A stretch of DNA of 64,000 bases from Glaucostegus cemiculus (taxonomy: Eukaryota). This document shows, one piece after another, positions 22,301-57,146 of the stretch; within the stretch, counting starts at the first letter, position 1; each line of letters opens with the position of its first letter. The translations under genes and the position numbers were made by a program. The stretch spans positions 5,456,001 through 5,520,000 of the forward strand of contig CDPCPM010000418.1 of the NCBI GenBank assembly GCA_976551045.1. The letters run 5' to 3'. The notes beneath the pieces are model-generated. The model was not told where the DNA came from, did no database searches, and worked only from the letters and a program-made list of their open reading frames with translations.

Positions 22301-22950
22301 TGACGGGGCAGAGGTAAGGGTCTGAACACAAGGAGTAGAGAATGGGTATGGATCAGAGGGACAGGGTGGAGAACATCTCTCTTGTCAAACTCTCTAGAAC
22401 CTTGTATGTTTCAGTGACACTGGAAATAGAATGGGGATAATGTCCTTAAAATAGGTCCTGTGAGGTCTTAGTCATCCGTCAGTGAAGAAGGGAGGAGAAT
22501 TATTGCATCTCAAGTGTCACTGACATGTTGACAGGAAGGACTGCAGGATGACGTGGTGGGAACAATAAACAACAGAAGGAAAAGAATAACTTTGATGCTA
22601 AGATTATATTAACAAAAAATCTACTGGAATTATTTAAATGAATATCAGGAGCAGCATGCAGTCCTAACAATGTTTCAAAGCAAGTTATTGGTGATGAGTA
22701 GTGGGGGTTATGTATGCTGCTTCCGTTATGGATCGCTTTCTGTTCACTAATGGACATTAATGGGCTGCTGGGCTTGTAATTGGCACAAATGGATGGAAAC
22801 TAAGGTAAATAAAAGCACTTGGCAAATCAGCATCTCATACAACAGAACAGGCTTTATGGGGGCTTTGTTGTGCATTCATTTTATTAGTGTTGCTCAAACT
22901 TCTGTAATTAGACAGAATCCGGTAAAAGGAGAACACAGAGGAGAGCAGCA

Positions 22951-23470
22951 GAGTACAGTCAGAATTGGTGACTGCTGGTTCCGCTGTGCACACCGTCAGA
23001 GTACAGTCAGAGTTGGTGACTGCTAGTTCAGCTGTGCACACCGTCAGAGTGCAGTCAGAGTTGGTGACTGCTAGTTCAGCTGTGCACACCGTCAGAGTAC
23101 AGTCAGAGTTGGTGACTGCTAGTTCAGCTGTGCACACCGTCAGAGTACAGTCAGAGTTGGTAACTGCTGGTTCAACTGTGCACACCATCAGAGTACAGTC
23201 AGAGTTGGTGACTGCTAGTTTAGCTGTGCACACTGTCAGAGTATAGTCAGAATTGGTGACTGCTGGTTCAACTGTGCACACCGTCAGAGTACAGTCAGAG
23301 TTGGTGACTGCTGGTTCAACTGTGCACACCGTCAGAGTACAGTCAGAGTTGGTGACTGCTAGTTCAGCTGTGCACACTGTCAGAGTGCAGTCAGAGTTGG
23401 TGACTGCTGGTTCAGCTGTGCACACTGTCAGTCAGAGTTGGTCACTGATGGTTTAACTGTGTTCACACCA
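22951..23470. repeat. Minisatellite, 48-bp unit, about 10.5 copies
   Basis: Unit gagtacagtcagagttggtgactgctrgttcarctgtgcacaccgtca repeats head-to-tail; 16-aa periodicity in ORFs on both strands. Confidence 0.97.
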
Positions 23471-26830: not shown

Positions 26831-28639
26831 TCTTCATTGTCTGGCACCGAGATTCCCCCTCCACACAGCATCAGCTTTAGTATCCCTTCAGGGGGTGGGT
26901 GCTCATTAGAAGCTTCACTGCTTTACCCTTGCTCTTGCAGGATTAGGGGTGACACTGTGCGAGAGGAGACCCACCCCTACCCATACACAAGATTCCATAA
27001 TCCAAATTCCATCAGTCCCTGTTGGTTCAGCAGAGAGATGATTAGGAAACTATTTCTGAATGCCACGTTGAAGACTCAGAGATAAAGGTCACATTGCAGT
27101 AGGACCCCAGTATAGGAGCACATTTCAAAATGCTTTCTTTAAATAACTTGCATACTTTCCACTAAGTAAACACTGAGCATTGTAAAGAGTTCTGGAAAAA
27201 ACCCATATGAGGTGTTACAGCCTGCTCCGTAGAGCAGCAAGTTGCATGTTTACATAAGAAATGTTAATTATAGCCTGTGCCTTTAATGGAGCTTTTGCAG
27301 ACGAAGGCTGAGAGCACAATAGCTGAGAGTGGAATGGTTGATGAATTTGGGGCTGGGGGTGTCATGGCTGACTAAAGGTGGGGGTAGGGTTGGCGAGGGT
27401 GTGGCTGACTAAGGGGGGGGGGCTGGCGGTGTGATGGTTGATAAGTTGGGGGTGAGAACAAAGGAGTAAAGAAAGTTAGGGATGTGCCCGAGCCTGTGGA
27501 ACAGGATGATTCTGAGGTTAAAGCAGCAGAGGAAAGTAAAGACTAGCACGGCACACCAGGAAAGGACAAGGACATGTGCAGAATGATGGAAAAGGTGCAG
27601 CTGAGTAGGCAGTAGAAAACGACGAGATAGGTTCTATCAACAGAGAAAAGCATCCATAAGATCAGAGTGCAGAAGTGATCAATAGTGGAGTGGTTGGGGA
27701 AGGTGCTTAAAGTAAGGATGTAGTGGGACTGGCTATGTGTGGCATGGTACAAGACTACCAGCTCACTGGCACAGCGCAAGAATGGGAGCAGGGGATAAAT
27801 TTCAGGAAAACAATTAATTTAAAGTGTAAACAATAATGCACATTTGATTAATTATGGTCTTTATTCGAGGTTAGGTGTGACTTGTGCAGTGATGTGCCAC
27901 AAATGTAGCCTATGGATTTACGTCGAGTGCCGTGATCTAAACAAGCTGCATCCCAGAACTCTAGCTCTGTTCTGAAGAGATCTATGGAAGGAAATATTTG
28001 CCTTGGAAAAGAATGACTCCACTGACTTCTGGAATGCTGAACCTGTGAGAGAATGAGGGGGTGAGCCCGTGTCCCCTGGAGTATAGAAGTATGAGCGATG
28101 GTGGCATTGAATCATAGAGAATTGTAAAGGGGCATGACGGGGCAGCTGCTGAGAGGATGTTTCTGTTGATTGGGGAGTCTATGGGACTCAGTCTCAAAAA
28201 AAATGAGGCCAGTTCTTTAAGGCAGTGAAAATGTGTAAATCTTTATAATTTGGCACTCCAGTGAGTAGTAGCTACTCATTTACTGACCTTATTCAGCTTT
28301 GGAATGGATAGATTTTTAGCTACTCAGGAAATCCAGCAATTTGGGCTATCAAGAGAAGGTGGAGTTGAGGTGGAGGATAGGTCTTCATCCTATTGGATGG
28401 CAGAGAAAAGACCAATGGCTGGCTCCTGTTCCTATTTCTTATGTCCATACTTGTCCCTGTCTTTCTAGATGCAAAATTGCAGGCAACTGAATCTTCTAGT
28501 GACCTAATTATTGTGATTATTAAGTTATTATGCACTTGAAACAGCAAGTTAAGTTTTGTTCTGTTTTGCATTGTAATTTCAGTCATCAATCAGCATGATC
28601 TGAGTAATTGGGTAAAATTCATTCAAGTTGTTGAAGGGT

Positions 28640-29655
28640 TATATTCTGAGTGGAGATCGGTGACCAGTGGTGTGCCTCAGGGGACTGTACTGGGACCCTT
28701 ACTCTTTGTAATCTTTATAAACGACCTGGATGAGGAAGTGGAGGGGTGGGTTAGTAAGTTTGCACATGACACGAAGGTTGGGGGGTGTTGTGGATAGTTT
28801 GGTGAGCTGTCAGGGGTTACAGAGGGACATACATAGGATGCAGAGTTGGGCTGAGAAGTGGCAGATGCAGTTCAACCCATATAAGTATGAAGTTGTTCAT
28901 TTTGGTAGGTCGAACATGTTGGTGGAATATAGTATTAATGGTAGGACTCTTGGCAGTGTGGAGGATCAGAGGGATCTTGGGGTCCGGATCCATAGGACGC
29001 TTAAGGCGGCTGCACAGGTTGACTCTGTGGTTAAGAAAGCATATGGTGTATTGTCGTTCATCAGTCGCGGGATTGAATTTAGGAGCCGGGAGGTATTGCT
29101 TCAGTCCCTGGTCAGACCCCACTTGGAGTATTGTGCTCAGTTCTGGTCGCCTCACTACAGGAAAGATGTGGAAGCCATAGAGAGGGTGCAGAGCAGGTTT
29201 ACGAGGATGCTGCCTGGAATGCGGAGCATGCCTTATGAAAGCAGGTTGTGGGAACTTGGCCTTTTCTCCTTGGAGAGGAGGAGGATGAGGGGGTCCTGAT
29301 AGAGTTATATAAGATGATGAGAGGTATTGATAGGGTAGATAGTCAGAGGCTTTTCCTCAGGGCTGAAATGGTGGCCACAAGAGGACATAGGTTTAAGGTG
29401 CTGGGGAGTAGATACAGAGGAGATGTCGGGGTTAAGTTTTTTACTCAGAGAGTGGTGAGTGCGTGGAATGGGCTGCCGGAAGCAGTGGTGGAGGCGGATA
29501 CGATAGGGTCTTTCAAGAGACTGTTAGGTACATGGAGCTAGGTAATATAGAGGGCTATGGGAATGCCCAGTAATTTCTAGTGTAGGGACATGTTTGGCAC
29601 AGTTTTGTGGACCAAAGGGCCTGAATTGTGCTGTAGTTTTTCTATGCTCTATGTC
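28640..29655 (+). mobile_element. 5'-truncated CR1 LINE fragment (RT C-terminus and 3' tail), frameshifted
   Basis: SGVPQG.VLGP, WQMQFNP.K..V.HFG, LVRPHLEYC.QFWSP, FFTQRVV..WN.LP in successive frames; homologous to 53450-54450. Confidence 0.92.
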
Positions 29656-38146: not shown

Positions 38147-38664
38147 TTAAACCAGTAAATGGGCATTTTTCCAGTCAGAATAGAGTAGAAACCCAGTGAA
38201 GGTACTGTCTGTCTTAGTGCTGGAGTAAATCCCATTGTACTCCCCCACTGCCACCTGCACCCACACCTGGTCCTTGGGGTCCAGGTGGATGAGGGCTCCA
38301 CCTGATAGTGAGACGGGCTTTGGCCAGTTGGCGTAGTACTGGAAGAAGGAGGAGACAGTCACATTGTTCTTCATGATGTCAAACTGCAGGCTGGTTCTGA
38401 ACACTGTGGAGTGAACCACAAAGTAGTAGAGGCCTGGAATCTCGCAGGTGAACTTTCCTGTCACCGGGTTGTAGTGGTGCTGATCATTGTGCAGAACCAC
38501 ATCGAACTGCACCGGCTCCTCGGTCAGGGGGAAGATGTGAGTCTTGGAACGTTTTGCACTGAATGCTGAGTTGTAGCTGATCACACTGTCCCCTTTGACT
38601 CCCTTCTCACCAGCTTGCCCCGGCATCCCATTATCACCCTGCTCCCCCTTAGGCCCAGGTAAGC
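38147..38664 (-). CDS. C1QTNF5: C1QTNF5 last coding exon: rest of collagen domain and globular C1q domain
   Basis: Acceptor ttttgtttttcag, phase 1. SAFSAKRS...GKFTC.IPGLYYF...SLQFD...[10 protein letters not shown]...DQVWVQV...KTDSTF.GFL.YSDW is diagnostic of CTRP5. Spliced CDS is 735 nt = 244 aa with 23 Gly-X-Y triplets. Confidence 0.96.
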
Positions 38665-41600
38665 CTGAAAAACAAAATCATGAATTAGATTATTGCAATC
38701 AAACTCTCCCTCTCTCCCCTTCAACATCTATATCCCCGTCAGCACAGCTCCCATTTCCACATTCCACCCCACCCCACCCCACCTCATCCACAGAAGAACA
38801 GAGCAACAGTGTAGGAAAGTTACAACAATGTTCTGTTTAATTCCGAAAGCCCACACCCACCCTACTGAGAATGTTCATTGAGCTCAGCTCACTCCTCATG
38901 ACTTGGGTTAAGGTGCATCGTAGAACCTTACCTCGTACCAGGAGGACGTTTGGTCCATCGTAACTATGCCAGATCTCTGAGAGTACTCTCTCCATTCCTT
39001 ATCTCCATCCTGTGCAACTTTTTCAAAAGATGTTAAGAATGCTTCTAGGATTGTTTTTGATCAGATGTTTTCCTAAATTCTCCCATCATTATATTTTATT
39101 CCATTTAGTTACTGATTTACTCTCTGCTCCAGTGGAGAGTCCAAGTACCTTTTTTTTAAGTCTCTCATCACTGAAAGGCTTCCAGCTCTGATGCCAAGCA
39201 GTGAATCCCCGGTTCCTTTTCCGTGACTTTGACACCTTCTCAATGTGGCCAGCCAACAACCGGTTTATCCTTTGGCCGCTTTATGATGCAGGTGTTGCAC
39301 TGACAATCCTTGGTCACAACTAATAGTTGACACTTACAGGTGTAGCATCACTTCTGCATTCATACTCAGCACCCCACCGGTAACTCTCAGGTCACTTATT
39401 TTAACTATTTCATTTAATCTTCAACATAGTTAGAAAAGCAGCAATGAAATTTACAGTGGAAGTGGGACTAGATTTAGGTGGCTGCATCTTGGTACAATGG
39501 GTGGCAGGTGGAATTGAAGACAAAACAGAGGATTTATGAGTAATTGTAAAAAAAAAAATGAAAATTGTGAATAAGGAGCATTATTGCAACAGCTCTGTTC
39601 ATGAAGGAACAAAAAGATAAATCAGGTAAGTAGAGATTAACTAACCTCAGATCCATTGCTTAAACACTTTCAGTTTGACTGCTGCACCTTCTATTGAGAC
39701 CACGGCAGATTTTGCCTTTATATTATTGCCACTGAGAACACAAGTTGTTGAATACAAAAAAAAATTCCACTGACCAAGTTACAATCATTTGTTTCATTCA
39801 TAATGAGAACATTAAATCCATTGGGTGTACCAAGATTACTTAATACCATGTGAAATACTTAGACTGCTGTCTCTATCCTCAAGTGGATGAATATCAGAGG
39901 ATAAGAAATGGATTAGTTCTACCCTATAACTTAACCAGTGGGTTAGTTGAACTGAACATGCCTGAAACTAAGTCTTTTACCACATTCATCACCTCAAATT
40001 AAGAGCTTAACTTATTTTTAAATGCTTAGTGACTTAATACTGTATACCAGTTAATGGATCACTGGGCTGCACAGAGCAGGAATTGATACGGTTGTGTTCT
40101 TGGCCCCAACTGAATTGATATAATTGTCCTAGTGCTCACAGGCTCGGGGTGTAAGGACTGATTTAGGTGTGTGGTTGTTGGCTATGGCCTGGGATTGTTT
40201 GCAGTGGAAATGCATTTCACAGTCAAATAGTGTAAAGAAGAAACTGCAAGTCAGCAGTTCGGTCAGCATGTTTAACTCAAAGATGCATAAAATAGCGGGT
40301 ATGATACTTGATTAGAAAAGGGGTTGGATGTTATCTGGATCCCTATATTCATTTAAGAGCTCTGTTCTCCTTCAATCCAGTGTTCAAGTGCATTGCCTCT
40401 CCCTTCACTCCACCAGCAGTAATAGTGCATTCAGCTGTCTGGGCCCTAAGCTTTGCAATTCTCCCTAAATCTCTCCACCTTTTTTCCATTTAGATGCCCT
40501 TTAAAACTGCCTCTTTGGCTGAGCTTCTGCTCACCTATTCTAATCTCACTTTAGAGGGCAGTGGTATCAAACCTGGCTTTACAATGCTGCTGTTGTGTGC
40601 CTTGGGACATTTTACATCATTCAGAAAAAATTATATTTGTTGAAGTGTTAACCTGGCTTTACTGGGACTTACTGGCTAGTTGTGCTGTTCCAGAAAACCT
40701 TATTGTTATGCCAAGGACCCCAGTAGCAGTTATTGCCTGGACCCAGAGTGCTCACTGGAGCAGGGCAAAGCTTCTGGAGGCTGCACCAGCAGCAGTCAGA
40801 AGCTTCAACAACAGAGAGGAGAAAACTGTATTTTCTAATGTTTAAAGTCTCTGGCTCAGTAAATCAAAGAAAAGAACAAATCACAGCATCCAAGTAAAAT
40901 GTGTAGCATCATTTGAAAAACGATGGGAATATTTGATCAGAGTAAAAATAAATCAGTCCCAGAGGCCTTTTCCAACTTCCTTTAGAAAGGAAAATAAAAT
41001 TCCGAAGTTACAGTAATCACTCCTGCCAGGCCTCAGACACTTCTGCCTACCCTATTTTAAACTTCCAGCTGAATTTAATTAAGAACAGAAGCAAGCAACC
41101 TAACACTGATCAAAAGTGGGGGGATGGAAATACGGTTTTATTTACAGAAGCAAGCTGTGAACTTGTTTTGTGTGTGGAGATGCAATCTCTGCTAATGTGT
41201 TGTGATACATCAGCAAAATACGTCCATCTCCAGCATGTGACCTCAGAAGACAGCTTTGTAATTACATTGACCAAAATGCAGGAATAGTGTTCAGGAAATG
41301 TCCCACCAGCAGCGGCAGTAATAAACAAATTATTGGAACCAAACAGCCAAGGCAGGAAGTACGTGGCTGGATGTTGCACCTTACTTTGTGGTTGTGCCTT
41401 TATTCTGGGAGGAAAACTTTACAAGGTTAAATCCTTCCGGTCAGGATTCCACTGTACCAAGATGTTCACATCAAAGTCACAAAAGTAGCTTACGAATGTA
41501 ACAAAGGTAAACTGTCCCTCAATTTCTTGAAAATCAAAAGAACTGCTAAATACTGAAAATCTGAAACAAAAACAAAATGCCAGAAATGTGCAGCAGGTCA

Positions 41601-42664
41601 GCAAGTATCTGTGCAAAGAGAAATAGAGTTGACATTTCAGGCCGAAGACCCTTCATCAACATCTTGACCTGTCAGCTGCCCTTAACACAACGGACCACTC
41701 CATTCATCCTCTAATTCCAAACAACTCGTGCCGGTCTGAATGGAACTGCACGTCCTTGATCAATTCTTATTTTCTATCTGCTTTTGCTCAGTTACTTCTG
41801 TATTTCTCATCTATACGCTGCACCTCAGCAACATTGTCTGAAAACACAGCTTGTGTTTCCACACGTATGCTGAAGGGATCTAATCCTTCACTTGTCTCTA
41901 AATTTTCGGATTAGAACTGAATGAGCAGAAATTTCTTACAACTAAATATTGAACTAATGATCTTTGGGCTCTATTGCAATATCAGTCCCTGTCCACAAAA
42001 ACCCATCCCTCTCCTTGGCAACTGTGTGAACATGAACCAGGCTGTCAGAAACCTTGGGGTCATCTTTGATCCAAAGAATATATCCATGTCATTGCTAAAG
42101 TAAACCAAATACCACCTCCCTAGTATCACTTGACATCACCTTATCTTCAGCTCACCACTGCTGAAACATTCTTTAGGCCTGGAGAGTTGACTATTCCCGG
42201 CTGTACCCTCTGTAAACTTATACATCCAAACCTATGCTACCCAAGACCTAGCTAACAAAGTCCTGCCCGTCTGAGTCTCCCCTTGACTTTCATCTGGTGA
42301 GGAACTCTGGTGATGAAGGGCGAAGAACAAAGTTCGACAATTCGAACACAAAACTAACTTCGGCAATCCATTCTATAGATAGTTTAAATTTTGGCTCATT
42401 TCTCTGCTCTTAATCCTGGCATTCACATACAGTATCATCATGTTATCTTATTCAAATGCCCTGGAGGATGAGCACTGGCATGCAGCTCATTCATGGGAAA
42501 CAAGACAACCATGTTGGTCTTCATCCAAAGAAAATTCAACTACTCTGAGCCTTGTTAGCTTAAAATTACTTCCCGATTCCAATTTAGTTATTGCTTGTAA
42601 TATAAAAGTATGATGTGACATTAGCAACCAGGAATGTCACACAATCCTCATTACTGAGGCTTAC

Positions 42665-42881
42665 CTGGTTTCCCTGTTTCACCTTTCTCTCCCGGTGCTC
42701 CAGGCATTCCATCCCTCCCATTTCTCCCATCCCGCCCTGCCATCCCTGGATGCCCATTCCGTCCCGGAGTTCCTGGAATTCCCGGCTGACCAGGACAAAA
42801 TCCAGTAAATACGTTTTCTGCACTGTTGGGTGACGCACATGACAGCAAGCAGAACAAAAGGAACAAGGTAAGAGGAGTCAT
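42665..42881 (-). CDS. C1QTNF5: C1QTNF5 (CTRP5) first coding exon: signal peptide, N-terminal Cys, start of collagen domain; exon begins at 42908
   Basis: [18 protein letters not shown] hydrophobic leader, then [13 protein letters not shown]...[10 protein letters not shown]...GEKGE Gly-X-Y repeats; acceptor ccttttatctctacag at 42909; donor G|GTAAGC. Confidence 0.95.
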
Positions 42882-42929
42882 TCCGAGGCTTGTGAAGAAA
42901 GTCTGGTCCTGTAGAGATAAAAGGAGCTA

Positions 42930-43900
42930 CAGTTAGGCCTTGGCAGGTGTACTGTTCGAACACCAGCTTCAGGAAGGATGTCAACACCCTAGAAAGGTAC
43001 AGTGCAGCTTTAGAGTCATGGAGTTGTACAGAATGAGAAACAGGCCCTTCAGCCCATGACCATGCCAGCCTTTGTGCCATCCACATGAATCTGCCCATCT
43101 GCCTGTCCTAGGTCCATATCCTTCTGTGCTGCGTGTTGTATCTGACTCCATCAACTCCCCTGGTAGCAAGTTCCACATATCAACCACTGTCTTTTCTTTA
43201 AAAAAAACTTTCCCTTCAAATCTCTTTAAAATTTCTTTCTCTCACCTTAACCTATTCCTTCTTGTTTTTACCTAAAATGGGAAAACAATTCTGACTATCC
43301 ACCTTTTCTATGCCCCTTCAGTTTATATACCTCACGTCAGGTCAGTCCTCGGCCTCCTTCACTCCAGTGAAAACAAGCCCAGTCTGTCCAATCTCTCCTC
43401 ATAACCAAAGTCCTCCAATCCAGACCACATCCAGATGAATTTGCTCTGCACTCTCTCCAGCAACCTGCACACAATACCCCGGGTGTGGTCTAACCAGTGT
43501 TTTGTAAAGTTGCAACATTACATCCTAATTTTTATATTCATTGCCTCAACCTACGAAAGCAAGGATGCCATATGGCTTCTACCACCCTGAATGAAGGTAT
43601 AACAGCCTTTCATCGTGCGAGACTGGGATTGTTCTCCTTGTTACACCAAGCAGACTGGGGGAAAATTTAATAGACATTCATGAAGAATTTTTAGAGTAAA
43701 TACAAACAAAAAGATTTCTCTTGCAGGAGGGTCAGTAACAGAGGACACAGTTTTAAGAAACCAGCAAAAGAAGCACAGGGTTGTTGAGGTACAATATTTT
43801 TAGCTGTCAAGTTCTTATGATCTTAAAAGCACTGCCTAAAAAGTTAGTTGAGCAAATTCAATAGTTACATTCAAAAGGAAACTGGATAAATATCTGACAA
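42930..43900. mobile_element. Old plus-strand CR1 remnant interrupted by a minus-strand CR1 3' fragment (about 43012-43590), in C1QTNF5 intron 1
   Basis: gttaggcc…ttcaggaaggatgt…ctagaaagg resembles the LVRP…RKDV.ALER segment and resumes near 43600 (ctgggattgttctcctt). The inner copy has the acaggcccttcagccca tail in reverse. Confidence 0.7.
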
Positions 43901-46617
43901 GAGAAAAGAATTACAATGGGAAAAGGGCCAGGGCAACATTCCGGATGGATAACTCTTTGAACAAGTCTCGTATGACCAAACTGGCAGAACAACCTCCGTG
44001 CTGTGTGATACTGTCTCCTATTTTAGTGTATTTTTGAACATTTGTTCCACAAACATGCATCTTCACTTCCCCAATTTTCCTGAAGAATCGTGGGCTGTCA
44101 GGAAGACAGCATTAGAGTGATCGGTTGTCATGTTGTCAGAGCCATGTGGTATTGGGGGTGATAGAACAATGAAGTGTCTGGATCTTGTGATGGTGGAATG
44201 TCAGTGAGACTACTTGTCACTGAAGGAATGTCATGGTGACAAAATGTGTGTCAAAGTGTCAGGATGATATTGTCAGGGTGACAGCATGTTGGTATAATGG
44301 CATCATCTTCCTGGGGTAAGACGGTGTCAAGATATTGGGGTGTAGCACTAAAGGTCTCTGATGTTGTGTTGGACTGACAGGTTGACTGGATGTTAAGGTA
44401 ACTTGGATTTCTATCCTATTTCTGTCAGGCAGAAGAATAAGATTACAGTATTGCCTGGAAATTCAAATGCACACTTTTTAAAGCATTTTGCAATTGAAAT
44501 TTTATTTTCTTGAGTGAAGCATTCTAACAATGAGCTCTAGGTTATTTTGTGTCAATCAAAATAAGTCAACAGGCTCTTCCTATCATGAGTCACCATTGAG
44601 TACCTGACACTATTTCTGTGCTGGGGATTGCATGAAATGACATCATTCCCTGTGGAGCACTGTTCCTGCAGGAGAACTTGGTCCATGTTTTCCAGGGGCA
44701 CTGTCACTGGGCACTCCAGGGCAATATGATGTTAAAACTGTCATGCCAGACTACAAAGCTTGCAAGGTAAGTAAATTATTTACCCAAGACCCTCCCTTCC
44801 CCACTTGCATTAAAATGACAAGCTCTAACCAATCCCCAGGCAGACCCCCCCCCCCTTACCATCTCCTGGGCTGAAGGCTCCTTCGACCTTAAAGTCACCC
44901 CCAGTGCTACCAGTACCAATCCCCCACATCTGAAGCTGCATCATATTTATTGCACCCCCCATCATCACCCTCCCCACCTCCTCCCCCCCCCCCCCCCAAG
45001 GTGCTGCCAGGCCTCCAGTTCTAATCTTTCCTTCTAATGATGCAAATCCAGTTCCTGTCCCTGCCCTCACTGTCAATCCAGTTGCTCCCCCACCTGCTAC
45101 AATTCTGCCAGTCCCAAACTAGCACCAGCCCTTCTCCCCACCCTCAGTGTGGGAGCCAAGCCCCTGGATGCCACCAGTTCTTGTCCCACCTCATCTCGAC
45201 CAGTGCTGCTGATCCCAATTCACCACCATGATGCTGTTGACTTGAACTGCTCCCCTTCCAGCCCCAGTCTGTCAATCCCACTTTGCCCAACAATCTGACA
45301 ATCTCAGTCACCTTCACCTGCTCACACCTCCACCTCCAAAGTGAATTTCCTGTTCTGATATTCCACCCTCAACAACATTGTCCCAACCTCCAATCCCCTC
45401 CTCCAACCCACAATGATCTGTCCCCTGTCCATTCCCCCTCCCCACCCTCTCTACCCCCTCCATTGTGCCTGTAGCCAATGACTTTGAGCTTAGCCTCAGA
45501 AAAGCAGGATCAAGTGGCACATGTTTGGCTGAGCAAATATGCAATGCCCAGTTGGACCTCCATTACAATGCAAGTTTGTTGTAGTGGGCCAGTGTACAAA
45601 GCAGTCACTAGCACCCTGTATCTGTGCACACTCTGAAGGCCACTTTTGAATTTCTAGAACCATTTTCTTCCACCCTTTGAGAACAGGATGGGTGGGGTGA
45701 GGAGGGGCCAGTTGAGATTCTGAAGAGAGAAAACAAGGATACTGTTAACCCTCATCATGTCGTCTAAGGTACCGTCTGCTTAACTAGTAATGATCTTTGT
45801 TTTATCCCACAGGATACCAACCAGTGAACATTAAAAAAAACAGTTTTGGAATGCAAACAAGCTACTCCCCATTGACCACGGAACCGAACTGGAACCTTAA
45901 CCAGAAGTTGCAGGTTAGGAGCCGTCTATTAAATGAGGTGACTGCAGCTGTTAAACAGGAAAGCTGAAGCCTCTTATTTAATGGACGTTCAGCATCAGCT
46001 CTGAGAGCTTCTCGTTATTTCCCAGTAGTGTTTCTGAAATGTTTTGACAAAAGCAATCTCACTTCTGTTAATATAAGTTTAAATTGGCTACAAAACAAAC
46101 AACAAACATCCAACTGCCAGCAATGAAGTTTTATAAAATCTAGAAACCCTTTTTAATCATCTCTTCATGAACACATGCAACGAGCTGCAATGCACCGAAA
46201 TAGATCATTCTGACAATGTGAACATCATCCCAGTCAACAGTTTCTTTGTCTCAGAAATTTAAAGTAAGCATTAAAATATTCTTCATGGTGCCAGCTCCAA
46301 GTTTTTTAAGACAAACTGTCATTTCACTTAATAGTTAAACTCTTTTCATGCTCTCAACTATTTATTATCCTATACAATAGCCCTATTCGGTGGGAGACCA
46401 TATAAGCAAAAGTTAAAACCCTCCAGACTGCACCCTAACTAACATCTCCACAGAAAATATTTTTAACTCGACACACAGCCAACATCTGGGACACGATCTC
46501 TAACAGCTGGAGCATGTACAGGAAGTGCTCATATTGTTAATAAGATTTAAAGTTCCAATCCTCGGATCCCATGGAAACCAAAAAGAAACCCCTCAAGAAG
46601 TACGTGAAGTAACTCAC

Positions 46618-46800
46618 CATGAACTTGTGCTGTTTTACTTCTGCGAGGAGTGTGAGAGTGATGATAGTTTGTTGATGCCCACAGCCAGTGTCAGTATGGC
46701 TCTCAGCAGTCCCAAAGTCTCCTGATCAGACAGCTCCACCACTCGGCTCAGTTCAAAGGGAATGAGAAAAGTCTCTTGCTCATAGGCTCTGACTCCAGGA
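46618..46800 (-). other. C1QTNF5: Candidate first (mostly untranslated) exon of C1QTNF5; 5' boundary unknown
   Basis: Strong donor ATG|GTGAGT at 46618/46617 in non-repetitive sequence between the MFRP stop and the C1QTNF5 acceptor at 42908, which requires an upstream donor. Confidence 0.5.
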
Positions 46801-48844
46801 AATGGTTGATGCGCTCAGAGGCAGAGCCAGAAACAGCAGGGCAAGAAACAGCAGGTCAAGAAAAGATGGAGGCTGGGAACAGACCGAGTAAAGAGTCTTT
46901 CAGTCTGGAATTGAATGAATAAAGTAAAAAAACTATTCTCACAGGGACAGTTCCTCTTTTCAGATAATTTTTTTTAAAGGATAATGTGTACTAACTAAAA
47001 CAGATAATTGAAACTGTTGTACATATTCTAACCCGCCTGCTCTCTGAGTATTCAGTCCTACTCCAAGAATCGACAACAATATTCCAAGTGAACATTACAT
47101 TCCAACATGGGAGAACTGCTGCATCAACCAAAGTGTTATCCTTTAAATAGTGTTAAACCAGCATCCTGGGCTCACCCAAGACTATGTACGAATGTAAAGA
47201 ATATTATTTGAAAATGCCTTCCTGTCCTGGGGTCAAGATTCCTTGCTTAACCAGCAGCATGAAAAATAGACTAAGAGTCAAACAACTTAATTTGTTGTGC
47301 ATGATGTGTTTCTGAGAAATGTGACGAGACCCTACATAAATGCAAGACAAGCACAGAAAATGCTGGAAACAGCAGGTCAGAGAGCATCTGTGGAAACCCA
47401 GAGTTAAGGTTTCAGATTGAAGAGCTTTCTGGTCTTTGTTTCAGAATTCCATCACCTGTAGTTTCTTGATTTTCATATAACTGTAAGTACTTTCTAAATT
47501 ATTTTATTCTACTTATTTGATAGTACAAGGGATGTCAAGATTCTAAATACAGCCTAAAGTGGAATGGACAGTAACCAAACCCCACTAAAATAAAAATTCA
47601 TTTATATACTTAAATTGAATCAGTTATACAAATTGGTAACATATGTCACACAGCTAAGTTTTACTGAATATTATTTGGTGTTAAAAGTAGTTTTTATCAA
47701 GCTATCTTTCAGTTCACCTTTTTCCACAATTTTCTTCTATTCTCTCCTGATAAAGCTGACTCCTTACATAACTAAAGATAAGTTATTCACTTTTCATTAG
47801 CTGACTCCATACGGGTTTTGCATCAAACCCAGAACCTCCCTGGTCCATATGGTTTGGTGCTGGACTAGGATGTGCATTCATCTGCTGAATTTTGGGGGCA
47901 ATTGATTTCAACGTTCTGAATGACACACGAGAGGTGTTTTTAATTGTAAGGCACCTTTTGGGAGACAATTATGCTGGCTTTGCACCCCATGTAAGTTGAA
48001 ATCATAAAATATATGGGACATCACTTGGCCAAGGAGGTGTGTGTACAGGCTTGATCAGCATTTTGTTTTCTATCAGAACATTTTGGGGATAAAAATGTTC
48101 AAAATAAACAGGTTATACTGGGAAAAACACACAGCACCCAGTCAGATGAGATAATTCCAAACTGATTCCATTTACATCCTTGAGGTATCAATTCACTTCC
48201 CTCCCCGTGATCACCTTCCCACCAATCATATTTACCCACACACCTACAACCATAGATTTTTTTTTCTGTGATCTCCATGGGATCTAAAAATGATGGGAGA
48301 TCACAAAGTAAAGGTCTTTGTAGATGTTAGGATATCACACTCGGGGAGCCCAGCACAAACTGGCATGGGCCACCATGGTAAGCCCCACCTTTGCCTGTGT
48401 TTTAAGAACATATTACAAATTCCATCTTAGAGTCTTCATAACTGCAAAATATGTCCTTGTTTTGGATAATAATTGGCTTTCTGAAAACTCTTCTGCTGTA
48501 GTTTGCACTGCCTTGAAACAAAAATTATTGTTCCAACACAAGTATTCCCAATCTATAGTAACTGTGATAATCCAGCCTCACATCCATCTATCACCAACCT
48601 TAAGGCCACTCAGACAGTCAAGAGTCTTTGTCTTGGCAAAGGTAGAATAAAACTTCACATGAAAGGCACTTTAAAAAATTGCAAAGTTCTTTACTTTAAC
48701 AAAGAGATGTCTAGTTAGCATTTAGTGAAACTTGTTCATGTGGTCTCCCAAACATTGTGTTATTGAGTTGCAGTTAAAACAATTTCTCTTTCTGGAGCCA
48801 AGATGGATGTCGGTATGGATTGGATTGCGGTGTTACATTTTCAT

Positions 48845-49069
48845 CTAAGGTCTCACGCATTCAATGGGGTCATCAGAATCCGGAAAAAGGTCGCAGTTAA
48901 AAGGCCACATTATGCCTAGAGACTCCAGTGAATGCTGGCATTGTTTCTCAGCAGACAGACAGAGAGACTGGCAAGGTGGTACGACACCACCATCCCATGT
49001 GCATTTGGGCACAAAGATGCTGCAAGTCAGCAGGCGAAGATTCTCATAGCAAACCAAGCCCGTCAGGAG
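48845..49069 (-). CDS. MFRP: MFRP last coding exon, Frizzled CRD C-terminal half (LLTGLVCYENLRLLTCSIFVPKC...CDLFPDSDDPIECVRP*)
   Basis: Acceptor cattttaacag; 225 nt, phase 0; TAG stop at 48847-48845. Domain order CUB-LDLa-CRD at the C-terminus and adjacency to C1QTNF5 identify MFRP. Confidence 0.94.
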   Translation of the reverse strand, partial: LLTGLVCYENLRLLTCSIFVPKCTWDGGVVPPCQSLCLSAEKQCQHSLESLGIMWPFNCDLFPDSDDPIECVRP

Positions 49070-50226
49070 CTGTTAAAATGAAAGAATGGGCTGTTAGTGA
49101 TGTGACATCCAAGTTACAAATAGAGCAGATCAGAGTCATCAGTACTGGGATCTTGTCCGACTGGATCTAACACCTAACCATCCAGCAGAAAGCTGACAAG
49201 AGTGGAAAGGAAATGTGAAACCAAGAATCACAAATAAACTGCGTGAAACAGTGATCTAGCAATGTCATTTACTCCACTGAAAGGATTTGGAATAAATATC
49301 TGGTTGGGAGCAGGATCTCACCACCTTAACAAATTCCCAGCAGAGTCACTGGATCTGTGTACCTCAGTAATCTTGCTTCACTGATTGAAATCATTATTCA
49401 TTAGCACCTGAAGTTACAGATCCCTAATTTTCAACTTGATTCTGTAACTTACAAACCAAGATTAACTAATATGTGATTCACCTTAAAACTCGTTCTTAAC
49501 CTGACACACGGCTCTTATCCTGTTTTCCCCAAGTGGTGTGATGCAGCAATACATTTGAACCTCGCACTTCCCCATGCCCATGGAGGGATAATGTTCCCTG
49601 GGAAGAGCAGCAGCACCGAAGGGAATCACTTCAGAGATGTGAAGATAAAAGTGACTTTGATTGCCTTTGGGCATCAAGGAGCATTTGCACTGACTTTCCT
49701 ATGACATTGCATCCATAGCAGGCAAGGTGAATATTTTATCCACATTTTGTATTATTCAAGGTAATAAATCTGATTCTGCAAGCTGGTACAACACTGGAAT
49801 ATTTCATTATGTTCCTAGGCGCTTGTTTGAACAGAATCTCTCCCAACTCACTGCTCACAATGTGATGTTACCTTGGGATATATCCTAACTTATTTCTTCT
49901 CCCTGCAAAAGTGGATCATCCTGGCTTTTCATTTTCCCCAGCAAAGATCTATTACCCTTTAACACTCAGACAATTCTAATGCACAACACATTTTGTTTCT
50001 CTTCAGTGCCATGGGGGCTAAAATTATCAAAATAGCATAGCTGTTCTGCATCAAATTCAAAATCAACTAACTCAATGCACTTCAGAAGTTAAAAAAAGAA
50101 AAAGAGCTGTGCACTTTGACACACTGTAATGGGACAGACTGGAGGACCATTATTTCATATTGAAAATTCTCCTCAGTAGCCACCGTCACATCAGTAGATG
50201 TAGTAGGGATAGCTGTGCTCTCTCAC

Positions 50227-50354
50227 CTTGTAGTCCTTCAGGGTAGAAATAGCACTTCTCTGATCTGGAATTCCAAGCCAGATATTAGGGAATGAAGTTT
50301 CATTATAACTGAGTCCTTGACACATCTCCACCTCAATCTTCTCACAGGCAGTTT
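50227..50354 (-). CDS. MFRP: MFRP exon, Frizzled CRD N-terminal half (ETACEKIEVEMCQGLSYNETSFPNIWLGIPDQRSAISTLKDYK)
   Basis: Acceptor ctcctcttttccag, donor AAG|GTGAGA; 128 nt, phase 1-0; CE.I...MC.GL.YN.T.FPN Frizzled motif, closely resembling MFRP. Confidence 0.94.
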
Positions 50355-51013
50355 CTGGAAAAGAGGAGCAAAATATTCATGGCAGGTTTTGATGTTCTGA
50401 AACAGCTGCATAAATCGTTGTGACCACCTTGCTCCTGGGCATATATACTGCAGAGTATTGCCATCGATGAGAAGATCATCGTGACTGTGGTATTCCATAC
50501 TCCTGTTACTAGGGTATCAGTGGATACTGCAGCTCCAAAGCATCACCATTATGGATAACCCTATCATGCAGACTGATAGAGACAAGAAGAACAGCCAGCT
50601 GGCATGGTTACGAGAGATTTCTTGATATGATGCTGAACCATTCAGATAAATTTCATCTTGGAACTATGGACCAGTTAGGATCTAATGGCAAAGGGAATTT
50701 GACACAAGGGAGGGGAAAACATATCCAAACTTCTAGGTACAAAGAAATAAGTGATAAGGTTCGCCATACAGTTCAAAAATAGAGAACTTAAAAAAAGATA
50801 CTTTATTCAAGTCCTGTAAGAATCATAAGAGCCTGATGAAACTATAAATGCAAGGTTAACCTCTGGTGACCAACATTTCCACTTATCTCTGTGTCCTGGA
50901 GGCACTTATACCTCCAGATTCCAGCATCTGCAGTTGCCTGTGTCTCCATTGAACACAAGTTTACAAACATTTCTCCAGACATTTAGCTTATAAAATACAT
51001 TGATAAATAAAGC

Positions 51014-51288
51014 TAGGCAGAAAGCTGAAGACCAGGACCTCAAGGGTAGTAATCTCTGGATTACTCCCGGTGCCACGTGATAGGGAAGTTAGGAACAGGG
51101 AGAGGAGGCAGTTAAATACGTGGCTGAGAGAGTGGTGCAGGGCAGAGGGATTTAGATTTTTGGATAATTGGGATCTATTCTGGGGAAGGTGGAACCTGTA
51201 CAGAGAGGACGGGTTACACCCCAACCGGTGGGGGGCAAATATCCTGGCAACACGTTATGCTTGGGTGGTTGATGAGTGTTTAAACTAG
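51014..51288 (+). CDS. CR1 ORF1 C-terminal fragment, SGNH/GDSL esterase-like (…RVVISGLLPVPR…LNTWLREWC…GFRFLDNWDLFW…LYREDGLHPN…CLN*)
   Basis: DGLH catalytic block V motif typical of CR1 ORF1 esterase; stop TAG at 51286-51288. Confidence 0.88.
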
Positions 51289-54200
51289 TTGAGATGGGGG
51301 TTGGGAACCAGGAGGGCTGGTCAGAGGATGTAGTGATTTCAGAAAAGGCAGATCTGACAAATGGAGTTGCTTTGAGGAAGGAGAAGCAGTGTACAGGCAG
51401 TAATAGTAAAAAGGTGGATAAACTAAACAGGCAAGGCAAGGGAAACCAACATGGCTTAAAGGAGGAGGTATGCAGGATCACGTCAACGTGTACTGAAGAT
51501 GGAGAGGAGTTGCATCGAGCAGGTGATGAGGCTTTGGGGAGGGAGGGGCAGGATGAGGGCTATAAAAGGGTTAAATTGGATGGGTTAAAGTGTGTTTACT
51601 TTAATGCGAGAAGTGTTAGGAATAAGGGTGATGAATTGAGGGCTTGGATAGGTATGGGGGATTATGATATTGTAGCCATAACTGAGACGTGGCTGTCGTC
51701 AGGGCAGGAGTGGGTATTGAACATTCCTGGTTTTCAGTGTTTTAAAAAGGATAGGGAGGGGGGGAGAAGAGGAGGAGGGGTGGCGATATTGGTCAGGGAT
51801 GATGTTACGGCTGCGGAAAGGGCTGAGTTTGCGGAAGGATCCTCTTTCGAGTCGGTGTGGGTGGAAGTGAGGAATAGGAAAAGTGTGGTTACGCTGCTGG
51901 GAGTATACTATAGGCCCCCAGGTAGCAGTAGGGATATAGAGGAGCAGATTGGCAGGCAGTGCTTGGACAGAAGCAAAGATAATAGGGTTGTAATAATGGG
52001 TGATTTCAACTTCCCGAATATAGACTGGGACATGCTCAGTGCCAGAGGTTTGGATGGGAATGAGTTTGTTAAGTGTGTCCAGGATGGATTTCTAGCGCAG
52101 TATGTTGACAAACCGACTAGAGGGAATGCTGTGTTGGATCTGGTCTTAGGAAATGAACCGGGACAGGTGAGAGATCTACTAGTGGGTGAGCCTCTGGGAG
52201 ACAGTGATCATTCCTCGATAAGCTTTAGAATTGTCATGGACAGGCATAAGTGCAGGGAGCGTAGGAAGATATTCAATTGGGGTAGGGCAGACTATGAGGC
52301 TATAAGGAAAGAGCTTGGGAGTGTAAATTGGGAAGTCCTTTTTGAGGGGATGTGTACTGTAGAGATGTGGACGTTGTTCAGGGATGTTTTACAGGATGTT
52401 GGGGACAGATATGTTCCGGCAAGACGGAGGAAGAATGGAATAGTGAAGGAACCGTGGGTGACAAGAGAGGTAGAAAGACTGGTTAGGAGGAAGAAGGAGG
52501 CTTACGTAAGGTGTAAGTGGCAAGGCTCTGATGTGGCCCGTGAGGAGTATAGTATAGTGAGAAGGGAACTTAAGAAAGAGCTGAGGAGAGCTAGAAGGGG
52601 ACATGAAAAGATGTTGGCTCGTAGGGTTAAGGAAAATCCCAAGGCTTTTTTCTCTTATGTGAAGGGCAGAAGGATGACTAGGGTAAAGGTAGGGCCTATT
52701 AAGGACAAAGGTGGGAGGATGTGCCTGGAGGCGGCAGAGGTAGGGGAGGTACTTAATGAATACTTCTCCTCTGTATTCACCAAGGAGAGGGGCCTTGATG
52801 ATGTGACAGTGAGTGCTGACAAGGGTAATATTCTTGAGTATGTAGCTATAGAGAGGGAGGAGGTGATGAAATTGTTAAGTAGTATCAAGACTGATAAGTC
52901 TCCGGGGCCCGATGGAATATTCCCCAGGCTGCTTCGGGAGGCGAGGGAGGAGATTGTTGATCCGCTGGTGAGGATCTTTGAGTCCTCGTTGTCCACGGGG
53001 ATGGTGCCGGAGGATTGGCGGGTAGCGGATGTTGTTCCCTTGTTTAAGAAGGGCAGTAGAGATAGTCCGGGAAATTACAGACCGGTGAGCCTCACGTCTG
53101 TGGTAGGTAAGCTGTTGGAAAGGATTTTGAGGGACAGGATCTATGAGCACTTGGAGAGTCATGGACTGATTAGGGACAGTCAGCATGGCTTTGTGAAGGG
53201 AAGATCTTGCCTCACGAGCCTGATAGAGTTCTTTGAGGAGGTGACGAGGAAGCTTGATGAGGGCAGGGCAGTGGATGTAGTGTATATGGATTTTAGTAAG
53301 GCGTTCGATAAGGTTCCTCATGGCAGGCTTCTTCAGAAGGTCAGAGGTCGCGGTATCCAGGGGAGGTTGGCTGTGTGGATAAGAAATTGGCTTTCCTGTA
53401 GAAGGCAGAGGGTTATGGTGGAGGGAGTGCCCTCGGATTGGAGGGCTGTGACTAGTGGAGTCCCGCAGGGATCGGTTCTGGGGCCTCTACTCTTTGTTAT
53501 ATTCATAGATGATTTGGATGAAGGAGTGGAGGGATGGGTTGGTAAGTTTGCAGATGACACCAAGATCGGTGGTGTGGTAGATAGTGTGGAGGACTGTAGG
53601 AGCTTACAGGGGGATATTGATAGGATGCAGAAATGGGCTGACAGGTGGCAGATGGAGTTTAATCCGGAGAAGTGTGAGGTGGTGCACTTTGGGAGGACAA
53701 ACTCCAGGACAGAGTATAAGGTAAATGGTAAGGTTCTTGGCAGTGTAGAGGAGCAGAGGGATCTGGGGGTTCATATCCACAGTTCGCTCAAAGTTGCCTC
53801 GCAGGTGGATAGGGCTGTTAAGAAGGCTTATGGGATGTTGGCTTTTATAAATAAAGGGATTGAGTTCAAGAGCAGAGAGGTGATGATGCTGCTTTACAAA
53901 ACTCTAGTTAGGCCGCACTTGGAATATTGTGTTCAGTTTTGGTCGCCGCATTATAGGAAGGATGTGGAGGCGTTGGAGAGGGTGCAGAGGCGTTTTACCA
54001 GGATGATGCCTGGATTGGAGGGTATGGAATATAAAGAGAGGCTTAAGGTGCTAGGGCTCTACTCATTAGAGAGGAGGAGGATGAGAGGGGACTTGATAGA
54101 GGTGTATAAGATATTAAGAGGAATAGATAGAGTTAATAGTCAGCGCCTCTTTCCCAGAGCGCAGATGCTCAAGACGAGAGGGCAAGCCTTTAAGATAATT

Positions 54201-54378
54201 GGTGGAAAGTATAGGGGGAGATGTAAGAGGGAAGTTTTTCACCCAGAGAGTGGTTGGTGCATGGAATGCACTGCCTGGGGTGGTAGTGGAGGCAGATACG
54301 TTGGACAGGTTTAAGAGATTGTTAGATAAGCACATGGAAGAATGTGGAATAGTAGGATATGAGGGTGGAAAGAGTTAG
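51276..54378 (+). CDS. CR1 ORF2: APE endonuclease plus reverse transcriptase; one +1 frameshift in a G run at 54214-54218 near the C-terminus
   Basis: 1012-codon ORF with NARS, ITETW, YRPP, GDFN, LDL, SDH (APE) and KSPGPDG, YRPVSL, QHGF, DFSKAFD, GVPQGSVLGP, FADD (RT). Removing one G restores RGDVRGKFFTQRVV…, ending at TAG 54376-54378. Confidence 0.93.
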
Positions 54379-55160
54379 TTTGGGAGATGTTTGTAGGATG
54401 GCACAGCTTGATGGGCCGAAGGGCCTGTTCTGTGCTGTATTGTTCTATTGTTCTAAAGCAGAGACCACAACTTGAAGGGACATTTAAAATGAATTTGCAG
54501 AAATAGTATTTCAATGAGAGCACAGTCATCCTACAGAACAAATGTGGAAGCAGTTAGTATTGATTAATTCAAGTCCAACTCATACAGGCTTTGTTCAGGA
54601 AATGATATTTTGGGATGAGTAATGAGTGACATGAGCTACATGAGTAATTTGCCTCATAGCAATGTGGTAAATGTAGTACTATGGGAAGAACTAGTGACTT
54701 CGGAACCATGGGTTTCAAATTTCCTGCTTCCTTATGACACCCCATCAATGCCATTCCCTACTTATTCCCTTGTAACCTATTTTCTCTCACATGCCCATTA
54801 TCTCCTCCCACCTATACCAGGGATAATTTACTGTAATCAGCGAAACTCCCTGGAGGATGTGGGAAGGAACCAGGTCGCCCAGGAGAAACCCATGCGGGAA
54901 AAGAAGCAAACTTCATACAGAAAGCTTGGGACATCAGGATCAAAGCTATTGACTGGAGCTGAGGCAGTGCCTCCCTTGTTGTATGCAGATTGATTGAGAT
55001 TGATTTCTACAACAGTTGACTACTCTATCATTGCATTAAACTGCTATCAGGAATATAAATATGAACTCTATGGATCTCAGTATTTTCTTGTCCAGAGATT
55101 ACTACGTTTGTTGGGCAGTTGTGTGTCCTGGCTCAATTTAAAATCCTGGCATGCACATAC

Positions 55161-55295
55161 CATAAGGCAGATGTGTAACATTAGTGCAGTTCCTCTCGTC
55201 ACTCCCGTCTGAGCAGTCACTCCAGCCATCACACACCCACTGCATCGCTTCACACTGCCCATTTATACAGCTGAACTCATGAGGACTGCATGCCA
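55161..55295 (-). CDS. MFRP: MFRP exon, second LDLa repeat ([45 protein letters not shown])
   Basis: Acceptor ttctttctcag, donor G|GTATGT; 135 nt, phase 1-1; canonical WVCDG..DC.DGSDE..C motif. Confidence 0.94.
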
Positions 55296-56501
55296 CTGAG
55301 AAAGAATAACAAGGAAGAACGGTCAGGGTAAGTGGTTTAATGCAGTCTGGCTTCCTGAGAGCCTCCAGGCCGAGTACATGTAACTTAATTTGCTCCAAAT
55401 ATCATACAATTTGAGTCAATAAGAATGTTGGATTCTGAGCCAACCCAAGTAATTAACAAATCACTGACACAGACGCAAGGGATTGATTCAAAGGAAAAGG
55501 GACTCGAGCTATACATTTTGTTTCTCTGTTCCTCCAGCTCCTTGAACTTTGAAGCCACCGTCATGTCATACAATGGTTTTAATGTCACAAGCCATCAACC
55601 ATTTCATTCCTGGTGGAAGCATCCAGATGAAGTCCAGTCCACCCCCTCCATTTCTGAGGACAGACCTATGTTATAAGTATCCACACGTCAAACGTACTTT
55701 ATGACTGAAGAAATCTAGAGCATCTTGAGATGGTGAAGTGCAAGAAAAAAAGGAGCTTAAAATAAAATCTCTTTTTCCCTTTCTCCATTTCTATTTTCCC
55801 TCTTTGACTTTCTTTCCTTTATAAAAAGGTGATGGACAGATGGAGAAGGGGGATTTGTGGAAAACCAAAAGGAAGTCGAAGACAAATAATGACACAACAT
55901 TGCATCTGGAAATTTTAATCTATGTCTCCACCTGAAGAAGTTGCTGTGAAATGGTAAGTTAAGCTAATAGTTCTCACAAAAGGCTTTACTGACCTTGACT
56001 GGTACACATAGCTCACAACTTCATCTATCGAATGAATATTAATATTCACAACAGGAGAGAGTTGCCAGTCTTTGGAATTCACTACCTGAGGGAGCGGTGA
56101 ATACTCAGTTGTTGAGTATATTCTGGGCTCAGAATACTGTATTTTTGGACTCCAAGGGACATGGGATCAGGCAGGAACATAGCTTTGTAGAAATTCAGCC
56201 ATGATCTTACTCAGTGGTGGAGCAGGCTTCAGGGGCTGTGAGGCCCACATCTGCTTCTGCAAGGTATTAAAGGTCATCTCTGAGGGTGACAACAAACACT
56301 TATCATTACACGTCATCAGTGGTGCAGAACACCAGCAGTCCTGAGAGAAACTCAGGCCTGTTTTCTTTCTCAAGCACATTGCAGAGCCAAGGAGGAAAGC
56401 AACATAAATCAAAAATATCAAATAGAATTGATTAATAAATATAATTGCACAAAGCTTCTCTTGACTGCAAGAACAGATGAAGGGGCAGCAGCATTTCTTA
56501 C

Positions 56502-56632
56502 CCTCACTCTTGTTGACAGCCTGGTAGGTGGCAAAGAACCCCACATCTGAGTCTCCCTCATCAGCCACAAAAAGAACCAACATCTCGTGCTGGGGGGACG
56601 TCAGAGTTGGAGGGAGGGAGTCCCCACAGTAT
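56502..56632 (-). CDS. MFRP: MFRP exon, CUB2 end (RYCGDSLPPTLTSPQHEMLVLFVADEGDSDVGFFATYQAVNKSE)
   Basis: Acceptor ttttcttttaaag, donor G|GTAAGA; 131 nt, phase 2-1; YCG...P...F..D....GF.A.Y CUB motif; overlaps ORF 56167..56583. Confidence 0.93.
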
Positions 56633-57146
56633 CTTTAAAAGAAAATGATCGGTTAAACTTGGGGCCTTTTGTTTCCATTTCTTTGCCCGTGTAGTCTTAT
56701 GTAACTGAGAATTCTGAAACAAATAATGTGCCTCTCCACCATCAACAACCACTGTTCTGTACCACCCCCTCCTCCCCTAGCACTCAGAGTAAGTTGGTAT
56801 TAGGAGGCTCTGGGACTACCCATATTTCACATCCTTCTGACCACCTTTCCCCCTTCTTTGACTGTAAGATACTGCTCAGGGAGGACTGAAACAGAATACA
56901 ATTCTAACCCTCCTCCTTCCCCATTTGAGACTGTGGGACAGCTCGTCTGTAAATAATCCATTCCCCATCTGAACACGGAGACTTTCTATCAGTGGTCGAT
57001 TTGTAACCGGATCCCAAAAGGTGCAAGGTGCTTGTCACATTGACTTTCCCATGTTGAAGACAGTTCTCTGCTCTAGTGGTGATAGGTCACTATTATACTG
57101 AATTACACTTCTTAATTCCACCTTGTAGGTAATTTAAACATATTAC

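Follow-up and report, generated by a model that had tools for sequence, protein, structure and literature searches.

A conserved, in-register slippery heptamer at the ORF1/ORF2 junction of CR1 retrotransposons suggests programmed -1 frameshifting

The 64,000-nucleotide stretch of the Glaucostegus cemiculus genome analysed here (contig CDPCPM010000418.1; hereafter the window, whose numbering all coordinates follow) carries on its + strand a CR1-type long interspersed element (LINE), a 5'-truncated copy of about 3.45 kb whose first open reading frame (ORF1) is of the esterase type. We found that ORF1 ends in GAG TGT TTA AAC TAG, with TTTAAAC (51279-51285) in the X_XXY_YYZ register directly ahead of the stop codon, and that the endonuclease and reverse transcriptase (RT) of ORF2 are encoded in the -1 frame. 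Programmed -1 frameshifting at this site probably makes an ORF1p-ORF2p fusion in full-length CR1 members (we put the probability at roughly 0.7, judging from sequence), and the conserved CR1 junction is probably a real, functional recoding signal. The copy in the window is itself dead, because its ORF1 is 5'-truncated to about 90 codons and its ORF2 changes frame near 54213-54222; a truncated relic, it keeps the signal and cannot use it. Frameshifting had been proposed in an earlier reading of the letters alone (the sequence-only reading), and none of the checks that were run contradicted it; its coordinates for the heptamer and register, the ORF1 stop, an ATG at 51294 and a G-run were all confirmed on the sequence. 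The junction and the two ORFs are laid out as follows.

51014-51288, + strand: final ~90 codons of the esterase ORF1 (SGNH/GDSL-like), which ends Cys-Leu-Asn-stop (PF13472, E 1.6e-8)
51279-51285, + strand: slippery heptamer U_UUA_AAC in the ORF1 register, kept in relatives
51286-51288, + strand: ORF1 stop TAG, immediately 3' of the heptamer
51286-51596, + strand: open, polar linker of ~100 codons in the -1 frame
51294-51296, + strand: in-frame ORF2 ATG, the sole Met before the endonuclease in this copy, unconserved in relatives
51296-51305, + strand: G5-N2-G3 motif, candidate stimulator, 10 nucleotides (nt) past the heptamer, occurring once in the element
51600-52220, + strand: ORF2 apurinic/apyrimidinic (AP) endonuclease domain (PF03372, PF14529)
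53049-53744, + strand: ORF2 RT domain (PF00078, E 1.6e-33)

The -1 frame is opened by a TGA at 51273-51275 and stays open from 51276 to 54314. These 1012 codons agree with the length of about 1000 in the sequence-only reading, except that the final ~30 lie past the break near 54213-54222 and are out of frame. That the frame opens only one codon before the heptamer is likewise true of this copy, but incidental, as the frame is open for at least 27 codons ahead of the site in a frog family described below. The match goes beyond chance: given the codon usage of the copy's own ORF2, the joint probability of a T-ending codon followed by TTA for Leu and AAC for Asn is 0.0032, TTA and AAC accounting for 8.5% of Leu and 13% of Asn codons. 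In the ORF2 frame the 102-codon linker is free of stops, of which the other two frames have 7 and 11, and it is open in 3 of 2000 dinucleotide shuffles.

For the DNA of relatives we relied on the table of CR1 consensuses that supplements PMC13343379, which was read by eye and whose cells end at 400 nt, so that most full-length consensuses are unreadable at the junction, which could change the counts. The string 'tttaaacta' occurs at 23 places in this supplement, all of which were viewed; 17 lie at a CR1-type ORF1 end and 6 elsewhere. We read the labels of the 17 rows as halosaur, alligator (2), bowfin, bullfrog, elephant shark, crocodile (3), stingray, coelacanth, sawfish, catshark (2) and spurdog (3). 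An 18th junction, in a lizard row, has the heptamer followed by TGA. Across the 18 junctions the next codon is TAG (11), TAA (6) or TGA (1), while the preceding seven bases are invariant. Ten synonymous or first-base variants of the heptamer yielded no CR1 junction among the 37 places shown of 47. In three table parts read whole, picked for containing known heptamer matches, the junction is visible in 5 of 33 CR1 rows and carries the heptamer in all 5; a search by anchors found it in 8 of 8 rows reaching the stop, a dependent sample in which most anchors came from rows already viewed. Judged from these consensuses, the signal is family-wide in CR1 and has been retained throughout the jawed vertebrates, with a varying stop behind it, as frameshifting would have it.

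Other sources added no junction. Two scans of genome contigs confirmed no CR1 in 325 stretches in one case and gave 1 hit of 37 in the other, a weak 41% match on a Pseudomonas contig that was left unused. Plasmids and phages searched by tblastn with an ORF1 yielded nothing, the supplement of PMC8665684 gave no match either, and in that of PMC4316615 the two places shown, of three, match just the 3' end of ORF2. Two CR1 ORF1/ORF2 proteins are filed under bacteria on contigs of 3-4 kb (P0001, Pseudomonas aeruginosa; P0013, Carnobacterium maltaromaticum), most likely vertebrate DNA contaminating bacterial assemblies.

The C-termini of ORF1 proteins point the same way. From 161 relatives, 109 were usable (C-terminus 16-42 residues past the last esterase motif), and 52 were excluded as fragments or shifted copies. 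The usable proteins end in Leu-Asn (61), Gly-Asn (9) or Lys-Asn (1), so that 71 of 109 have a terminal dipeptide able to encode a slippery heptamer, compared with 5% of internal dipeptides. Leu-Asn is preceded by a residue without U-ending codons (Q, K, E, M or W) in 1 of 61 proteins, against a background of 15.9%; at positions -4 to -7 of the same proteins these residues number 19, 16, 8 and 4 of 61. All nine Gly-Asn ends are preceded by Gln, as G_GGA_AAC requires.

In an ORF1 tree (FastTree, last four residues left out) Leu-Asn ends 42 of the 47 rows of the clade in which the named ray and frog proteins fall, and it also marks two other clades; Gly-Asn marks one further clade. The Gln-Gly-Asn proteins (P0182, P0188, P0191, P0193, P0199, P0201, P0205, P0257 and P0277) form this separate esterase-ORF1 clade, and rows related to it end in FF-x, EN or KN. 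A profile built from the ORF1 relatives matches the LINE ORF1 esterase structure 4C1B (E 1.5e-44), whose chain aligns up to residue 169 of 171. Because this alignment ends before the Leu-Asn columns, the esterase fold does not, on this comparison, need Leu-Asn.

The phase of ORF2 was followed with a script that searched 306 proteins for x-K-L-x-x-x-G upstream of the endonuclease motif. There were 15 matches, 10 of them in proteins that also carry ORF1 sequence: one stingray model (F-K-L, 69 residues upstream of the endonuclease), five stork models (F-K-L, 95 residues) and four poison-frog models (V-K-L, 50 residues). In 5 of 5 models the frog peptides match the frog ORF1 tail, read in the -1 frame, at every one of 27 codons (against 2-5 of 26 for slid controls); four of the five continue to the endonuclease motif 50 residues downstream. 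The frog match forces GCG TTA AA(C/T) stop, that is, a site G_UUA_AA(C/U). The -1 phase is, on these gene models, kept in ray, stork and frog, which agrees with the frameshifting proposal. We differ from the sequence-only reading on the transframe peptide, in which it placed F-K: tandem slippage, an established mechanism, would at this site give C-L-N followed by L-V-E-M, without F-K.

The region behind the stop lacks a conserved AUG. The ATG at 51294, put forward by the sequence-only reading as a competing explanation, lies in the ORF2 frame 5 nt past the stop (ORF2 has Met at residues 7 and 127 and the endonuclease motif at 108). In six well-spaced consensus rows the corresponding codon is CCG, CCG, AGG, TTG, CAG and CAG, never ATG, and in five of the six an AUG within the G motif belongs to the frame of ORF1 instead of that of ORF2. 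Among the 10 informative gene models, the linker's first Met comes at residue 23 to 83 and varies in place among copies of one family. The G motif is better kept. It starts at 51296, with the exact 10-nt spacing in 6 of 18 junctions and a near form at shorter distance in another 6, and consensus deletions may lie behind the shorter spacers. Gly at codons 7 and 9 past the site, in the window copy and in 9 of 10 models, matches the motif. In the window copy, a C-rich stretch of 7 nt in ORF1, within 51218-51227 and thus ~55 nt upstream of the heptamer, could pair with the part of the motif at 51299-51305, to which it is complementary; this pairing is outside the best-ranked duplexes and is not evident in other families.

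These data suggest the following course of events in full-length elements. While most ribosomes would terminate at the stop after Leu-Asn, a minority whose tRNA-Leu and tRNA-Asn occupy U_UUA_AAC would slip one base back and read on through the flexible linker into the endonuclease and RT. The product would be an ORF1p-linker-endonuclease-RT fusion, made in a small, fixed proportion in the style of gag-pol. The pause would probably come from the G5-N2-G3 motif 10 nt downstream and the adjacent stop, with no classical pseudoknot. We favour frameshifting as the most economical account, the only one to predict the register, the conservation at synonymous positions, the swap between two heptamers known to be shifty, the constant phase and an AUG that is free to vary. 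U_UUA_AAC and G_GGA_AAC are both named among the shiftiest heptamers on mammalian ribosomes in the sections of a frameshifting review that concern them (PMC5009743). A wider scheme can be proposed only tentatively. CR1 and its sister esterase-ORF1 lineages with G_GGA_AAC-compatible ends might all make a gag-pol-like fusion, so far unpublished, through a -1 shift driven by the linear G5-N2-G3 motif (as a protein site or a G-quadruplex), and the fused ORF1p might tether the enzyme in the ribonucleoprotein to which it belongs, which would make for cis-preference in a new way.

Several observations weigh against this interpretation. The consensuses are prone to indels, with many deletions, and 17 of the 18 junctions were found by motif search. 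Among the ORF1 relatives 38 of 109 end otherwise, two strongly supported clades (10 and 8 rows) lack both Leu-Asn and Gly-Asn, and 5 of the 47 rows within the vertebrate-type clade are not Leu-Asn; as the relatives are non-independent, these counts describe a pattern with no calibrated p-value, and a p of 3e-4 overstates it. The gene models are predictions that favour open frames. In the frog family the first base of the heptamer is G, which is non-canonical; a heptamer starting G_UU(A) is listed for equine arteritis virus in the relevant part of the review (PMC5009743). The in-frame AUG of the window copy alone would yield a complete endonuclease, and 3 of the 18 junctions (ScyCan 1a, SquAca 17a and SquAca 6c, all sharks) have a TAATG stop-start overlap with its AUG in the ORF2 frame.

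Of the 18 rows, 3 lack the G motif and 3 more are unclear or cut at its place, and its 10-nt spacer exceeds the 5-9 nt quoted for structured stimulators in the same review (PMC5009743). The hairpins suggested by the sequence-only reading did not hold up, local folding of the region being no better than shuffles in 5 of 5 segments (z -1.47 to +0.52). Its G-quadruplex-like fold fared little better: the G4-enabled ViennaRNA fold of the window copy has no quadruplex, and what is left is a high G4Hunter score of 1.64, in the top 1.2% of the element's windows and suggestive only. In the window copy, a simple stem search found no stimulator structure and an Rfam search of the junction no match, and a scan for long-range duplexes within the truncated copy found no partner above controls (26 of 65 as good). 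A canonical pseudoknot at the CR1 junction is unsupported.

The most serious alternative is coupled termination and reinitiation as in SART1 or L1, in which ribosomes terminate and start again close by in the -1 frame, at the ATG at 51294, a TAATG or a non-AUG codon, the heptamer and G-run serve as a reinitiation signal, and ORF2p is a separate protein. We consider this unlikely as the main route. For LINEs investigated to date this is the route on record, as far as the relevant sections of PMC5972666 and PMC3894237 go. It would also predict an open linker, and starts are at hand in the AUG of the window copy 5 nt past the stop, in the TAATG of 3 of 18 junctions and in a near-cognate TTG at the ATG codon in one crocodile row. 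L1 ORF2 translation can be AUG-independent, so a missing AUG would not be fatal. Reinitiation does not, however, predict an in-register slippery heptamer, its exchange between U_UUA_AAC- and G_GGA_AAC-compatible forms, or a fixed -1 phase where the stop lacks an overlapping AUG. Fifteen of the 18 junctions are without TAATG, in the well-spaced rows the AUG of the G motif is mostly in the ORF1 frame, and the first Met moves among copies. Reinitiation may operate in addition to frameshifting in lineages that have TAATG or the ATG of the window copy.

It is improbable that the motif is kept for another reason, either a need of ORF1p for C-terminal Leu-Asn or an RNA packaging or protein-binding element, with ORF2 reached by an unrelated route such as an internal ribosome entry site (IRES) in the linker. 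Leu-Asn does cap the last helix in many ORF1 relatives, and IRESs in inter-ORF regions have been proposed for elements without long terminal repeats (non-LTR elements) in a section of PMC3894237. Such a role sits poorly with conservation that extends to synonymous positions (the 8.5% and 13% codons of the window copy), with a Leu that is swapped for Gly and not for similar residues, with 4C1B lacking Leu-Asn, and with a linker that stays open upstream of any AUG. A join made in the RNA, whether through splicing to an acceptor immediately ahead of the heptamer or through slippage of the polymerase on the T and A runs, is more improbable still. Stork gene models do splice into S-F-K-L at the site, but these are predictions whose donor sides vary, the frog models enter upstream of the site, and the runs are of 3 nt against the 9 nt quoted for transcriptional slippage in the review's account of it (PMC5009743). 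A chance match in a single copy has next to no credit: TTTAAAC does occur 13 times on the + strand of the window, and TTTAAACTA is also present near the 3' end of CR1 ORF2 (two of three places shown, PMC4316615 supplement) and in the 5' untranslated regions (UTRs) of two spurdog consensuses (SquAca_CR1-18 and SquAca_CR1-3, PMC13343379 supplement), yet the position, register and conservation across vertebrate classes speak against it, and the conservation data refute it.

The remaining features of the copy concern its ends.

51008-51013, + strand: 5' copy of TAAAGC at the 5' truncation point, a probable target-site duplication (the 6-mer recurs at 54454-54459)
54213-54222, + strand: frame break near the 3' end of ORF2; the homologous C-terminus goes on in another frame to a stop at 54376-54378
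54379-54459, + strand: short 3' UTR, a tail of microsatellite type that lacks poly(A), and the 3' copy of the target-site duplication (54454-54459)

With its esterase-type ORF1, AP endonuclease and RT in ORF2 and microsatellite tail without poly(A), the element has the marks of a vertebrate CR1 LINE, such a tail being a mark of CR1 (PMC8535693). Named RT proteins matched by similarity come from ray, catshark, crane, turtle, anole and alligator, and the closest named ORF1 relatives from a stingray and a skate. Older CR1-like 3' fragments lie at 28600-29645, 17058-17685 and 43338-43580 (67-71% DNA identity to the main copy where aligned), and the ORF1/ORF2 junction is absent from all three.

The copy lies antisense between exons encoding CUB, LDLa and Frizzled domains, in an intron of a gene that we take to be MFRP or MFRP-like. 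Within 38147-56634 on the minus strand, this MFRP-like gene (CUB 56167-56634, LDLa 55138-55401, Frizzled 48845-49072) is directly upstream of a second gene (collagen 42651-42926, C1q 38147-38677) that is presumably C1QTNF5-like. MFRP and C1QTNF5 are adjacent and dicistronic in mammals. Elsewhere, an RT fragment with an ALKBH8_N match on the minus strand (7391-8392) is presumably of a Rex1-type LINE, and a minisatellite at 22949-23431 (48-nt period, 10 copies, 93% matches) gives rise to a repetitive ORF at 22835-23431 that is spurious.

The way in which LINEs translate ORF2 is not yet settled. Searches of the open-access literature, judged by titles and abstract openings, gave no report of frameshifting at the CR1 junction, older CR1 papers being outside their scope. 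The original chicken and turtle descriptions of CR1 (Haas 1997, Kajikawa 1997) may have suggested an overlap-based frameshift. Novelty is likely, not established. The part of a review that treats LINE ORF2 translation lists reinitiation, IRESs and 2A skipping and no ORF1-ORF2 frameshift (PMC3894237), and the one passage on non-LTR elements seen in the frameshifting review is on HeT-A and TART; the latter review anticipated natural G-quadruplex stimulators of frameshifting, unknown in 2016 (PMC5009743). If the proposal is true, -1 frameshifting would be new in elements of this class, and its candidate stimulator would be a non-canonical one. The CR1 ORF2 protein, from the commonest transposon of sharks, reptiles and birds, would have been mis-defined so far, CR1 being the dominant LINE in most non-mammalian vertebrates. 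There would be a simple mechanism for the ORF1p:ORF2p ratio and for cis-preference, and a natural frameshift site with an unusual G-rich stimulator would have been kept since the origin of jawed vertebrates.

Among known systems, the canonical vertebrate CR1 with esterase ORF1 (PMC13343379) has the same esterase ORF1, endonuclease-RT ORF2, microsatellite tail and 5' truncation; the main text of that paper uses neither 'frameshift' nor 'overlap', and the junction signal in its own consensus table goes unremarked. SART1, with its UAAUG coupling, and L1, with reinitiation, are likewise bicistronic LINE RNAs with low ORF2 output, and three shark CR1 consensuses share the TAATG. However, SART1 needs the overlapping AUG and a downstream structure, neither of which is found in the window copy, and L1 has an inter-ORF spacer of 63 nt (PMC5972666, in the part that deals with these elements). 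L1-type reinitiation would call for a conserved ORF2 AUG behind the spacer, whereas the CR1 AUG is unconserved and varies in position. Neither has been described with a slippery heptamer. Drosophila HeT-A is, like CR1, a non-LTR element, and is said to need a frameshift (PMC5009743, the same passage). Unlike in CR1, the HeT-A shift falls within gag, and HeT-A has no RT, so no ORF1-ORF2 fusion arises.

The arteriviruses offer a parallel for the stimulator. In their protein-stimulated frameshifting, nsp1-beta and a poly(C)-binding protein act on CCCANCUCC, a short linear motif beyond the usual spacer, 11 nt there and 10 nt in CR1 (PMC5009743, in the section on this system). Such linear motifs lie about 11-14 nt downstream, and the G5-N2-G3 of CR1 resembles this arrangement, as a lead only: it is G-rich and a candidate site without a known binder, whereas the arterivirus motif is C-rich and drives mainly a -2 shift. 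The closest likeness is to gag-pol of retroviruses and LTR elements and to coronavirus 1a/1b (U_UUA_AAC in infectious bronchitis virus), which use the same heptamer and register with the polymerase ORF in the -1 frame, and in which the short structural ORF product exceeds the polymerase fusion (PMC5009743, in the sections on these systems), as we would expect in CR1. CR1 differs in being a non-LTR host and in having no pseudoknot or stable hairpin 5-9 nt downstream (as looked for in the window copy), and because the canonical -1 frameshifting cassette has such a structure, we do not count the junction as a member. The Pfam scan of the element also gave no protease domain, so that, in contrast to gag-pol, the fusion would remain in one piece unless cleaved by the host. 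With its in-register heptamer, a downstream -1 ORF open from the site and conservation of the heptamer at the nucleotide level, the CR1 junction would nevertheless appear to work like such a cassette.

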